A DNA stretch of 32,000 nt from Candidatus Heimdallarchaeota archaeon (GCA_030668875.1 DAOVER010000019.1:26651-58650); one strand, 5' to 3'. Counted from the stretch's first letter, positions 1 to 21,166 are shown. Program-made: numbers and translations. The notes: a model not told the origin generated them from the sequence alone.

Positions 1-4
1 AGAA

Positions 5-898
5 ATGAAACTTATCGAAGCAGCTCGTAAACTAGATAGGACAATGAATACTGACATATCTATAGAGAATCAAATTCTGCCGTTCATTTGGAAGTTTATG
101 ACTCCAGCCTTGACTTTGCTTCCCTTTCATACTACCAATATTTATGTTATCGGTGATGAAACGAAATATATTATTGATCCCGGAGCAAATAGTGTGTCAG
201 ATATTGTAAATCTTCTGAGTTTTATCGAAGAGCATATCAATGAAATTGAGGGTATCATTTTAACAAGTGCAAATGCTGATCATTGTAATCAGGTTCTGGA
301 ACTGAAAAAGCGATATAATTTCCCAATTTACTCTTCTCATAACGTATCAGAGGTTATGAAAAAGGAAGATTGTGTTGTTAACCATATTTTAAAAGAAGGT
401 GACAAAATTCAATTAGGAACCTACAAACCTTCAGATAAGGACTGGTTTCTGGAAGTCATAGGGCTTCCTGGGAACTCCCCTGGATGTATTGGTTTATTTG
501 ATTCGAGAGGTATTATCTTTACTGGCTCAACACTTCATAAAACATTAACTAGCACGCCTGGTCCTTATCCTAATTCATATGATGAATTATTTAGAAGCAT
601 TGAAAGGCTGAAGAAATATCCTGCTCGTTTTGGACTTTCTGGTCGCGGAAATATAATGACAGATGTGAATGCCTCAATATCACTCAATTTAAAAAGAATG
701 AAATGGGCAGAGAAATCTATTTTAAAGCATCTTAAAGCAGGTATTTCTCAGATAGATGAAATTGCAGAAGAACTTGCTAATAAAAAACTACCCTTATGGA
801 AAAGAGTGACAAGGAATACAATTGAAGCAAATCTTGAGAAACTTGTTATACAAAAAAAGATCATACGCAGAGGGGAAGATTACTTACTCTCAAATTAA
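5..898 (+). CDS. Metallo-beta-lactamase-fold protein (LACTB2-like, probable C-terminal winged helix) with degenerate metal site; may be 5'-partial
   Basis: MBL scaffold motifs TTNIYVIG, IIDPG, IILTSANADH, LPGNSPG, IFTGS and LSGRG sit where TNxYLIG, LIDxG, THxHxDH, TPGHSPG, FTGD and PGHG are expected. The frame is open to the window edge (codon 2-4 is GAA), so the true start may lie upstream. Confidence 0.75.
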   Translation: MKLIEAARKLDRTMNTDISIENQILPFIWKFMTPALTLLPFHTTNIYVIGDETKYIIDPGANSVSDIVNLLSFIEEHINEIEGIILTSANADHCNQVLELKKRYNFPIYSSHNVSEVMKKEDCVVNHILKEGDKIQLGTYKPSDKDWFLEVIGLPGNSPGCIGLFDSRGIIFTGSTLHKTLTSTPGPYPNSYDELFRSIERLKKYPARFGLSGRGNIMTDVNASISLNLKRMKWAEKSILKHLKAGISQIDEIAEELANKKLPLWKRVTRNTIEANLEKLVIQKKIIRRGEDYLLSN

Positions 899-955
899 CA
901 TGCAATTCAAAATTCCCACATTAAACTTATATTTGAGAGTTATTCTATCAAATCA

Positions 956-2404
956 ATGAGTATCCCCGTTATACTAGAAATTTGTGATCCTAACTCATGT
1001 GGACTAGAATGTGTTAATATTTGTCCTCAGAATAAGAAGGGTAAATTGGCAATTGAGATCAAAGAAGATAAAGCACACATTATAAAAAAGCATTGCATTA
1101 ATTGTTTGCAATGTGTTTATGTTTGTCCATTAGATGCTATAGAAACTACAATAGGTGTCAGTAAAAAAGTAACTTCTTCAAAACTAAAAACAGAAAAAAC
1201 AAAGAAAACTGGACGAGAAGAAAAAAACATTTTCACTATCGATGAAACGGTATTTGAAAGGTACAGTGAAAAGAAAACTATTTTCAATAGAAGAATCTGG
1301 GATGAGAGTTATGAAGGTTATAAGAAACCGATATATGGGAAAGCATCAGAAAGAGCAAAATTGGGGATAGATGGATACTCTGAAATCGAACAAGCTGCTA
1401 TGGATGCTGCATGGTCGATTGAAAATCTTGTTTCTATGAAGGAATTTCATGAAGAGCGTTCAAAAACACTAACTAAAGAGGAAAAAAAGAAGGTTGAGGT
1501 TGCTAAAGTTAAAACAGATGTTAAGCAAGTAAATTATGATGTTCAACAACCTCAGCAATACAAAGTAGAAGACCCCAAAGAAATGACCACTTGGTTGAAA
1601 AAAGTAGCAAAATTGTATGGTGCAAATCTTATAGGAATAGCAAAGCTTGATCCAAAATGGATATACTCCGAAGATAGAATGGAAAGAGAATATGTTCTTC
1701 CCAAAAATCTACAGTATGCGATAGTTATTGCAATTGAAATGAATCAAGGAGCAATAAACACTTCCCCAAAGATGCCTTCTGGCATTGCAACTGGTTTAGG
1801 ATATTCGAAGATGGCATTTGTTAGAACTCTAGTTTCAAAATTTGTTAAAAATCTAGGATATGAAGCTATACCTGCTGGAAACACTTTAGGACTCTCTGTT
1901 CCACTTGCAGTTGAAGCAGGATTAGGTGGTTATGGTAGACAAGGTTTGCTAATTACACGAGATTATGGGCCTAGGGTTAGAATTGGCAAAATATTGACTG
2001 ACATGCCTTTAGTTGCAGATAAACCTGATTACAAATTTGCTAAATCAGTCGTTAAATTCTGCCGTACATGCAAAACATGTGCAGAAAGATGTCCTTCAGC
2101 TTCAATACCTTTTGATGATGATGAGAGTTACAAAACTTATAGTACCAGTAATAATCCTGGAATTAAGAAGTGGTATATAAATGTGGAAACTTGTTTTCTC
2201 TTCTGGTTAGAGAATGGTGGAGATTGTTCAAATTGTATAGCTGATTGTGAATACAATCATGTTCCAACTTGGCCTCATAAATTTGCAAATTGGATTGTTA
2301 TGAACTTTCCTTTTCTTAATCCTATTTGGCCATCTATAGGAAAAATGTTAGGTTATGGTGGTAACAAGTCTGCTAAGAAATTCTGGAAGAAAATTAAGGT
2401 GTAA
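956..2404 (+). CDS. rdhA: Reductive dehalogenase-like (RdhA/QueG family) cobalamin and Fe-S protein with an extra N-terminal RLI/ABCE1-type 2x[4Fe-4S] domain
   Basis: Core motifs KKVAKLYGANLIGIAKLDPKWIYS, LGYEA, VPLAVEAGLGGYGRQGLLITRDYGPRVRI, then CRTCKTCAERCP and CFLFWLENGGDCSNCIADC (the RdhA twin Fe-S motif). N-terminal C10-x4-C15-x3-C19-x3-C23-P and C47-x2-C50-x2-C53-x3-C57-P. No RRxFLK Tat signal. Confidence 0.85.
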   Translation: MSIPVILEICDPNSCGLECVNICPQNKKGKLAIEIKEDKAHIIKKHCINCLQCVYVCPLDAIETTIGVSKKVTSSKLKTEKTKKTGREEKNIFTIDETVFERYSEKKTIFNRRIWDESYEGYKKPIYGKASERAKLGIDGYSEIEQAAMDAAWSIENLVSMKEFHEERSKTLTKEEKKKVEVAKVKTDVKQVNYDVQQPQQYKVEDPKEMTTWLKKVAKLYGANLIGIAKLDPKWIYSEDRMEREYVLPKNLQYAIVIAIEMNQGAINTSPKMPSGIATGLGYSKMAFVRTLVSKFVKNLGYEAIPAGNTLGLSVPLAVEAGLGGYGRQGLLITRDYGPRVRIGKILTDMPLVADKPDYKFAKSVVKFCRTCKTCAERCPSASIPFDDDESYKTYSTSNNPGIKKWYINVETCFLFWLENGGDCSNCIADCEYNHVPTWPHKFANWIVMNFPFLNPIWPSIGKMLGYGGNKSAKKFWKKIKV

Positions 2405-19717: not shown

Positions 19718-21166
19718 TTAATCTAAAGTTGGTTGAGTAGACTTCATTTTATCTGCTTTAATCTGATCAACTGTTAGTTGCATCTTTTCAGCAAACTCAA
19801 CTTGTTCTTCCATCTTCTCCTTTAGTTCTTCTTGCTCTCCTTCTATATTCATTGATGCTTCTCTTTCCTGTGCTTCATCTTCAAGTTTCAGTGCTCTAAT
19901 AGTTATATATCCAATAATTCCTGCAATGAGGATAGAGCCTGATACAATGCCAAAAATAATTGCTGTTGGTATGACTCCAGCTAGAGTTGCAGCTATCGTT
20001 GCTGCAAGTAATGAAGCTGCATTTATCACTAAATCAATAACCCCACTAACTTTTCCCAGATGCTCATTTTTTACTACAGTTTGAAGAAGGGTTGAAAATG
20101 GAACATTAAAACCTACATTGACCACTCCTATAAAAGCAAATCCAACATACAACCAAACTGCTCCTCCTGGTAAATATGGTGCTCCTGCTATGAAAGCTAA
20201 ACACAAACTGGCAACCATTACAATGATTGTCATGAAGGTTAATTTCTTCTTCAGTTCACCTTTGATTGATAGGATTATAGCAGCAATAATTCCGCTTATT
20301 GCAGAAAAGCTCATAATCAATCCAAAATCTTGTTCATTCATCCCAAATTCAAAACTCATAAATGGAACTGTCAATGGATCTATGAACCCTATTAAGAAAA
20401 TTACGAATGCAAATAGAACTATCACAAAGGTAATTATTCTATCACTGAAAGATAACTTGAAACCATCCCTTAAGCCAACCATCATGCTTCTCATAGAGAC
20501 TCTTTCTTCTTTTTTAGGTGGTCTCAAATTTTTTCTAATTGAAACAATTAGTCCTGCTGAAATAAGGTAAGAAATTCCATCTATAATGAAAGCTATTTGA
20601 AAACCAAATATTGCAGTGAGAAATCCAGCCAAGAGGGGTCCAATTAATCTTGCTACATTGCTTGAAGTTTGAATAAAACTATTTGCTGTAAGTAATTGTT
20701 CCTGTTTTACTATTCTAGGTATTGATGCTGATTTTGCAGGAAAGAAGAACTGTCTGATAGACGAATTTACCAATGCAAAAATGTATAGATGCCAAATTTG
20801 TGTAGCAAAAATAAGTCCGAAGGCAGATACTGCCCCTAAGAAATCTCCGAATACCATTATTTTTTTTCTATCAAATTTGTCACTAAGAACTCCTGCTATT
20901 GGCCCCAGAAGTAGCATGGGAGCTATTGTGAATGTTGTCATTAAAGCAACGGCTTGAGTAGCTTCGTTTTCTGTTAAATGGGAAGTAAACGATAAAGCAA
21001 GGAAAATAATAGCTATGCTGGTAAAATATGATCCTAAATTGCTTATGAACCCACCTAGGAATAAAGCAGAAAAATTCCGATTTCCGAGAAGCGAAACAAA
21101 TTTAGGCTTTTTTGATACATTGACACTTACTTCAACTAGTTCATCTTGTGTTTTATCTTCACGCAT
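19718..21166 (-). CDS. MFS transporter (DHA3/macrolide-efflux-like)
   Basis: NRNFSALFLGGFISNLG, motif A GVLSDKFDRKKIM, FFPAKSASIPRIV, ANS...GPLLAG, QTVVKNEHLGKVSG. About 12 TMs and an acidic tail. Confidence 0.9.
   Translation of the reverse strand: MREDKTQDELVEVSVNVSKKPKFVSLLGNRNFSALFLGGFISNLGSYFTSIAIIFLALSFTSHLTENEATQAVALMTTFTIAPMLLLGPIAGVLSDKFDRKKIMVFGDFLGAVSAFGLIFATQIWHLYIFALVNSSIRQFFFPAKSASIPRIVKQEQLLTANSFIQTSSNVARLIGPLLAGFLTAIFGFQIAFIIDGISYLISAGLIVSIRKNLRPPKKEERVSMRSMMVGLRDGFKLSFSDRIITFVIVLFAFVIFLIGFIDPLTVPFMSFEFGMNEQDFGLIMSFSAISGIIAAIILSIKGELKKKLTFMTIIVMVASLCLAFIAGAPYLPGGAVWLYVGFAFIGVVNVGFNVPFSTLLQTVVKNEHLGKVSGVIDLVINAASLLAATIAATLAGVIPTAIIFGIVSGSILIAGIIGYITIRALKLEDEAQEREASMNIEGEQEELKEKMEEQVEFAEKMQLTVDQIKADKMKSTQPTLD

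Follow-up and report, generated by a model that had tools for sequence, protein, structure and literature searches.

The fused gene and its catalytic core

The stretch of DNA analysed here (the window) comprises 32,000 nucleotides of a Candidatus Heimdallarchaeota archaeon (GCA_030668875.1, DAOVER010000019.1:26651-58650) and comes from a Heimdallarchaeaceae (Asgard) genome bin of 3.2 Mb, 92% complete, which was assembled from marine-sediment metagenomes. Near its beginning, the window shows a gene encoding a homologue of the reductive dehalogenase RdhA (P0001), in which an N-terminal domain with two predicted [4Fe-4S] clusters, a linker and a catalytic core with two further cluster sites follow one another (Table 1). 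Judged from its sequence and predicted models, the protein is probably a cytoplasmic, soluble, PceA-type corrinoid/Fe-S dehalogenase homologue with a tethered, built-in ferredoxin. An earlier note on this DNA had reported the open reading frame (ORF), the two N-terminal cysteine motifs and an RdhA core with its own two Fe-S motifs, and these features are confirmed, all 16 cysteines being invariant; its description of a B12-type enzyme with four predicted [4Fe-4S] sites, devoid of a twin-arginine translocation (Tat) leader and of a membrane anchor, is supported as well. Full-length homologues with 48-89% identity, annotated as 'reductive dehalogenase', were found by homologue search in Heimdallarchaeaceae and Hodarchaeales, and Thor-type homologues show 38% identity across the full length. 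The start codon is secure by sequence comparison, because the full-length homologues all share the same first methionine and the Fe-S domain begins immediately after it. Given the TATA-like TTATATTT, it is possible that the gene has its own promoter and a leaderless mRNA.

Table 1. Features of the RdhA locus, with positions counted from the first letter of the window (aa, amino acids; MBL, metallo-beta-lactamase; pLDDT, predicted local distance difference test).
Feature	Position	Strand	Residues or motif	Remarks
Ferredoxin-fused RdhA homologue P0001, whole gene	956..2404	+	482 aa	ORF
N-terminal 2x[4Fe-4S] domain, ABCE1-like subtype	956..1150	+	1-65	
Cluster motif 1	983..1027	+	C10-x4-C15-x3-C19-x3-C23-P24	translation read
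Cluster motif 2	1094..1129	+	C47-x2-C50-x2-C53-x3-C57-P58	translation read, Fer4 family matches
Flexible linker	1151..1231	+	66-92	low pLDDT
RdhA catalytic core, corrinoid-binding fold and two [4Fe-4S] sites	1232..2401	+	93-482	
Active-site triad	1802..1981	+	Y283 (1802-1804), N309 (1880-1882), R342 (1979-1981)	alignment to 4uqu
Core cluster motif	2060..2095	+	C369-x2-C372-x2-C375-x3-C379-P380	
Core cluster motif	2192..2248	+	C413-x10-C424-x2-C427-x3-C431	
TATA-like TTATATTT	927..934	+		~25 nt upstream of ATG; sequence read
3' part of MBL-fold gene, directly upstream of the RdhA gene	1..898	+	500 aa	full gene at L015:147-1649

By sequence and predicted fold, the core is a genuine PceA-type RdhA and not a QueG, and its separation from QueG, for which the earlier note had proposed a check by phylogeny, stands. 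Among hidden Markov models (HMMs), it passes the NCBIfam reductive dehalogenase model TIGR02486 with 199.8 bits (cut-off 160.35) and fails the QueG model TIGR00276 with 42.7 bits (cut-off 200). Among solved structures, the best sequence matches are PceA of D. hafniense (8q4h, E 4.9e-58) and PceA of S. multivorans (4uqu, E 2e-53), followed by NpRdhA (E 4e-17) and by QueG (E 6e-6 over ~95 residues). The AlphaFold2 model of the full protein (pLDDT 88.8; predicted template modelling score 0.78) gives the same ranking in Foldseek: 8q4h_A shows an E-value of 1.3e-29 and a template modelling score (TM) of 0.64, NpRdhA follows with 2e-18 and QueG, with 2.5e-7, is the third-ranked fold. The residues Y283, N309 and R342 align one by one with Y246, N272 and R305 of PceA (4uqu). 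Both this triad and the eight core cysteines (C369/372/375/379 and C413/424/427/431) are invariant in the 44 sequences of the family alignment, in which the full-length identity of the fused homologues goes down to 38-40%. QueG belongs to the same B12/2x[4Fe-4S] superfamily and is cytoplasmic as well; QueA (PF02547), which makes the substrate of QueG, has no match in the 92%-complete host genome.

PceA (4uqu/4ur3, 8q4h) is thus the best solved match, with the two Fe-S motifs and the Tyr/Asn/Arg triad common to both proteins. PceA is equipped with a Tat leader and an RdhB anchor and faces the periplasm; the present protein lacks both leader and anchor and shows an N-terminal ferredoxin instead. 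NpRdhA (4ras/6zxu) and BhbA are likewise cytoplasmic, lack Tat and RdhB, and have an electron-supply module fused to the core. These two enzymes, however, have the module at the C-terminus, as an NAD(P)H-linked flavin/2Fe-2S reductase, and their core contains a vestigial second B12 domain, whereas the module of the present protein is an N-terminal 2x[4Fe-4S] ferredoxin without flavin or NAD domain. No Pfam or NCBIfam match to a C-terminal reductase module of the NpRdhA/BhbA type was found, and the 482-aa protein terminates 51 residues past its final Fe-S motif.

The absence of a Tat motif and of an rdhB-like neighbour, which had also been pointed out from the sequence, is confirmed: residues 1-40 contain no twin-arginine motif, and the first 8 kb of the window contain no rdhB-like or small membrane-like ORF. 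Four homologous loci show no rdhB-like or membrane ORF either. The protein has no membrane helix, its most hydrophobic 19-residue window having a Kyte-Doolittle value of 1.23. The twin-arginine signal and the adjacent rdhB, by which the respiratory subclass of RdhA is recognised, are both absent.

The host genome encodes other proteins with B12-binding domains and a second member of the RdhA/QueG superfamily, of 320 aa (C19:24996-25958, minus strand; L014:97-1059). This second member has no N-terminal ferredoxin and scores 91.5 bits with TIGR02486 and 48.6 bits with the QueG model, both below the curated cut-offs.

The N-terminal domain and its likeness to ABCE1

The eight cysteines of the N-terminal domain are invariant in 27 homologues, whose identity to the query in this domain is 28-77%. 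According to sequence profiles and structural models, the domain is closest to the Fe-S domains of ABCE1/Rli1 (3bk7, 6tmf, 3j16), with which it shares the cysteine spacing and a long spacer with a GK loop. In the NCBIfam scan of the protein, its best match is the RLI model NF009945 (positions 9-77, next best match 27 bits), at 40.8 bits against a whole-protein cut-off of 469, and the protein shows neither an ABC_tran match nor a hinge. The host genome scanned with NF009945 shows the true ABCE1 (C64) with 814 bits and the RdhA gene, with 43.7 bits, as the only other clean match in the Fe-S region; one match of 36.9 bits (positions 5-167) crosses 13 stop codons, and the remaining ferredoxin proteins reach at most 25 bits, mostly through the second motif only. 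A profile of 27 N-terminal domains aligns over its full length (4-65) solely with ABCE1/Rli1 among the PDB sequences (46-58 bits), polyferredoxins being higher in total only through repeated second-half matches; the single sequence likewise finds full-length PDB matches in ABCE1 only, and full-length matches in the host genome come again from ABCE1 only. In 40 Heimdallarchaeia genomes, this profile gives 79-98 bits for RdhA fusions and 32-59 bits for ABCE1-sized ORFs of ~600 aa. A word-indexed search with residues 1-75 yielded just two close orthologues plus a 4Fe-4S protein of Methanothermococcus, a sensitivity insufficient for a census, for which HMM searches of genomes were used instead.

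Predicted structures give the same picture. The pLDDT of the N-terminal domain is 82-95 in the predicted models and 89.7 when the domain is modelled by itself; the first nine Foldseek matches of that separate model are all ABCE1/Rli1 (TM 0.78-0.81, 30-41% identity), with root-mean-square deviations down to 1.2-1.5 Å over 63-column alignments; generic ferredoxins remain below them (TM 0.61-0.72). The spacer between the two motifs contains 23 residues in the RdhA domain, 25-26 in ABCE1 and 17-19 in DUF362 and polyferredoxin domains, and the spacers of the RdhA domain and of ABCE1 both bear a basic loop ending in GK.

The earlier note had called this domain RLI-type and taken its cysteine spacing for the signature of ABCE1. 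The likeness to ABCE1 holds in the NF009945, PDB and Foldseek comparisons, but the spacing is not exclusive and PF04068 (Fer4_RLI) has no match, either at E<=10 for the N-terminal domain alone or at the RdhA gene in the whole-genome scan; for comparison, PF04068 scores 41 bits with the host ABCE1 and 24.5 bits with a divergent ABCE1 paralogue. The use of PF04068 as a marker for filing the domain as RLI type was therefore dropped. The spacing C-x4-C-x3-C-x3-CP is also present in Heimdallarchaeia in DUF362 inserts (41-47 bits to the N-domain profile) and in polyferredoxins of 147 aa (28-30 bits), the loci concerned being L009 (G068:C8), L031 (G069:C6), L010 and L011. In an Fe-S-domain tree (64 columns, quick IQ-TREE), all domains with C-x4-C-x3-C-x3-C split from generic ferredoxins (Shimodaira-Hasegawa-like approximate likelihood ratio test 93), and the RdhA domains group with the DUF362 and polyferredoxin domains, not inside ABCE1, at a weak support of 85. 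An origin of the domain as a direct copy of ABCE1 is not adopted, as the support in the tree does not suffice for naming a donor. On sequence grounds, the cysteine spacing identifies a ferredoxin subtype best known from ABCE1 and is not a ribosome-binding signature, because DUF362 proteins and polyferredoxins of the same class share it and PF04068 is unmatched. The ABC ATPase domains and the hinge of ABCE1 are missing from the present protein, which also has no PF04068 match.

The linker that joins this domain to the core shows decreasing pLDDT in the AlphaFold2 model, with block means of 72 (residues 61-70), 57 (71-80) and 44 (81-90) and values below 50 for residues 79-88. Among 28 fused homologues, only P0073, with 35 residues, departs from a linker length of 21-29. 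The net charge of the linker varies from +10 to -4 among the same 28 homologues. The linker had been described as Lys-rich, which is true of the host (net +6) but not outside its family: the linkers of Hodarchaeales, LC3 and Thor-type proteins have a net charge of -4 to +3, so that the Lys-rich character is limited to the host's own family, whose proteins contain ~12% Lys in any case. A role of the linker as a nucleic-acid-binding element was rejected, since the charge is not kept outside the host family. Constant length together with variable sequence and charge and with disorder is as expected of a tether.

Several observations concern ABCE1 itself. The host ABCE1 (C64:11587-13464, L001) shows a degenerate second motif, C-S-G-V-A-I-C-x3-CP, in which the second cysteine is replaced by valine. 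The same change is present in four other genomes, from genera g1 and g2 (relatives L016, L017 and L019), while two genera of the same family, g4 and g5, show the canonical C-x2-C-x2-C-x3-CP (L018 and L020). The sequence of the degenerate motif suggests that this essential translation factor has a 3Fe-type cluster or one altered in some other way. In the Heimdallarchaeia families f5 and f7, several genomes contain two ABCE1-like ORFs of ~600 aa: G085, with L012 at C81 and L013 at C8, and also G089, G055, G071, G068 and G069. L012 has ABC_tran domains and a borderline PF04068 match in Pfam (24.5 bits), and its Fe-S domain (CP-L-N-K-K-G-R) is nearer to the RdhA N-terminal domain than that of canonical ABCE1 is (55-57 vs 42 bits). 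In the host genome, a 183-aa ORF shows a weak PF04068 match of 18.4 bits (C88:23538-23615, L002); Tsr3-type proteins bear a PF04068 domain without clusters.

Distribution in Asgard archaea and gene neighbourhood

A six-frame search of 399 Asgard genomes, 89 of them of high quality, found an RdhA homologue in 258 genomes and in 61 of the high-quality ones, mostly as a single copy. The fused form was counted when the match ran from query residue 10 or before to the end within an open frame of 450-582 aa (nearly all 450-506). It is present in five family codes and, in the host's own family, in 23 of 29 genomes; other Asgard families contain forms of 360-420 aa without the N-terminal domain. In a tree of 187 sequences built from the core only, with the N-terminal domain removed, the Asgard RdhA sequences group together and the fused proteins fall into what is essentially a single clade (support 95). 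Three members of this clade show no detectable N-terminal domain: in one a motif cysteine is lost, and the other two start inside the core and are possibly truncated. A larger clade, in which no member bears a Tat signal, encloses the fused one, whose closest relatives are proteins of 350-400 aa with neither a Tat signal nor the N-terminal domain. This nesting indicates that the domain was added to an enzyme that was already cytoplasmic and did not replace a Tat leader, contrary to the idea that it stands in place of one; being already cytoplasmic, the enzyme would need a soluble electron route.

The RdhA gene is flanked by the MBL-fold gene upstream and a DUF72 gene downstream. In three host-family genomes, a gene for an MBL-fold protein of ~500 aa immediately precedes the RdhA gene in the same orientation, with gaps of 57, 56 and 44 nt, and downstream the host-family genomes show DUF72, class III aminotransferase and FTCD genes. 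The only Pfam match of the upstream protein is Lactamase_B; its gene could be a partner of the RdhA gene or could reflect mere synteny. The fused homologue of LC_3 (Heimdall) has a gene for an aromatic amino-acid ammonia-lyase (PF00221) directly upstream (L006:4337-5857). In the homologue P0039, which has a Thor-type motif, a gene for a UbiE-like methyltransferase overlaps the stop codon by 4 nt (L008:7362-8120). No partner gene is conserved across the whole fused clade in the loci compared (host family, LC_3 and P0039). The window also contains a second ORF of 482 aa (19718-21166, minus strand), which is unrelated, resembles a multi-pass membrane transporter and has an acidic C-terminal tail; the equal length of the two ORFs is a coincidence.

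Electron supply, alternatives and prior description

To reach Co(I), RdhAs depend on electrons of low potential, for which a fused ferredoxin or reductase module, as in NpRdhA (ref. 25 in PMC6737245), is a frequent solution. In the reading preferred here, residues 1-65 would hold two extra [4Fe-4S] clusters on a flexible linker of ~27 residues ahead of the core. Low-potential electrons would enter this module from a soluble donor (a free ferredoxin, a hydrogenase or a 2-oxoacid:ferredoxin oxidoreductase, for example) and would travel through the two core clusters to cobalamin. The module would fill the role that RdhB and menaquinol have in respiratory enzymes and the C-terminal reductase has in NpRdhA and BhbA. 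We infer the loading of the clusters and of cobalamin, the direction of the electron flow and the donor; in line with proposals for Asgard RdhAs, the substrates are probably halogenated aromatics. A tethered ferredoxin is favoured because the cluster ligands are invariant, the linker length is kept, the enzyme is cytoplasmic and fused modules have precedents in catabolic RdhAs. Weighing against it, the Pfam model PF13486 gives 14.9 bits, below its gathering cut-off of 24.3, no donor gene is linked in the RdhA neighbourhood, and the Heimdall enzymes have been placed among the 'quinone-dependent' respiratory RdhAs (PMC12219181).

An alternative that is compatible with the ferredoxin role is that RdhA-like chemistry acts on an endogenous or common metabolite, not on an organohalide from the environment, as the work of a near-universal Asgard housekeeping gene. 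The breadth of the census, with usually one copy per genome, the grouping of the Asgard sequences, and the synteny kept within the host family and locally within Thor/Loki (PMC6737245) would all fit it. It is nevertheless unlikely, considering that the triad of PceA halide chemistry is invariant, that natural organohalogens are abundant in marine sediments (PMC6737245; PMC12219181) and that the neighbours, which differ between families, hint at no alternative substrate. Less likely still is a membrane-associated, quinone-dependent respiratory dehalogenase in which the extra domain would provide further routes for electrons out of the quinone pool, as proposed in PMC12219181. The core is indeed nearest to the quinone-dependent PceA of D. 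hafniense, and that study assigns the Heimdall enzymes to this subgroup, but neither the present locus nor the four homologous ones show a Tat signal, a membrane helix or an adjacent membrane ORF, the nearest relatives are short and Tat-less, and an Fe-S domain folded from residue 1 leaves no recognisable export route. The docking of the enzyme on the ribosome or on RNA through the ABCE1-like module, with a B12 core that reduces a nucleic-acid-borne substrate in the manner of QueG, which the earlier note had offered as one of its two options, is hardly credible: although the N-terminal domain has its closest relatives in the ABCE1 Fe-S domains, QueG is in the same superfamily and the linker is basic in the host genome, the twin ABC domains and the hinge, which make most of the ribosome contacts of ABCE1, are missing, PF04068 is unmatched and DUF362 proteins and polyferredoxins contain the same subtype, only one family has a basic linker, and the core keeps the PceA triad, with QueG far below its cut-off and only third in fold and with QueA not found.

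The fusion of an N-terminal Fe-S domain to an RdhA core is an architecture that is already published and widespread in Asgard genomes, which answers the earlier note's doubt as to whether it had been described. Manoharan et al. 2019 (PMC6737245) described putative RdhAs of Thorarchaeota with an additional N-terminal 4Fe-4S domain, and also found the PceA triad and neither a Tat signal nor RdhB. Complete N-terminal 4Fe-4S ferredoxin domains were reported in RdhA-like proteins of Heimdallarchaeia (PMC12219181, Microbiome 2025). The proteins of both studies share with the present one the N-terminal Fe-S domain and the core, the absence of Tat and RdhB and an Asgard host, and are located in the same clade of the core-only tree. 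Both studies call the domain a generic 4Fe-4S or ferredoxin domain (pfam00037) and mention neither the C-x4-C-x3-C-x3-CP spacing nor the likeness to ABCE1. The literature search found no text naming both 'reductive dehalogenase' and 'ABCE1', and the assignment of the N-terminal domain to the ABCE1 subtype seems to be the sole unreported point.

Little is added as a discovery, because the fusion has already been published and annotated. A bolder idea is that the ABCE1 Fe-S module and the RdhA front domain go back to a single ferredoxin cassette of the Asgard era, the one having been recruited from the other, and that the near-universal, single-copy Asgard RdhA acts on an endogenous substrate and not on environmental organohalides; its chances appear slim. 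What the ABCE1 clusters do is still debated, and a shared cassette, if true, would establish the ABCE1-type domain as a module for electron transfer and would bear on why ABCE1 has redox clusters. The fused proteins are among the most widespread candidate dehalogenases in marine-sediment Asgard archaea and, if expressed, would offer a natural test bed for the low-potential electron supply of a cytoplasmic archaeal B12 dehalogenase, and a natural test of whether an ABCE1-type cluster pair can shuttle electrons.

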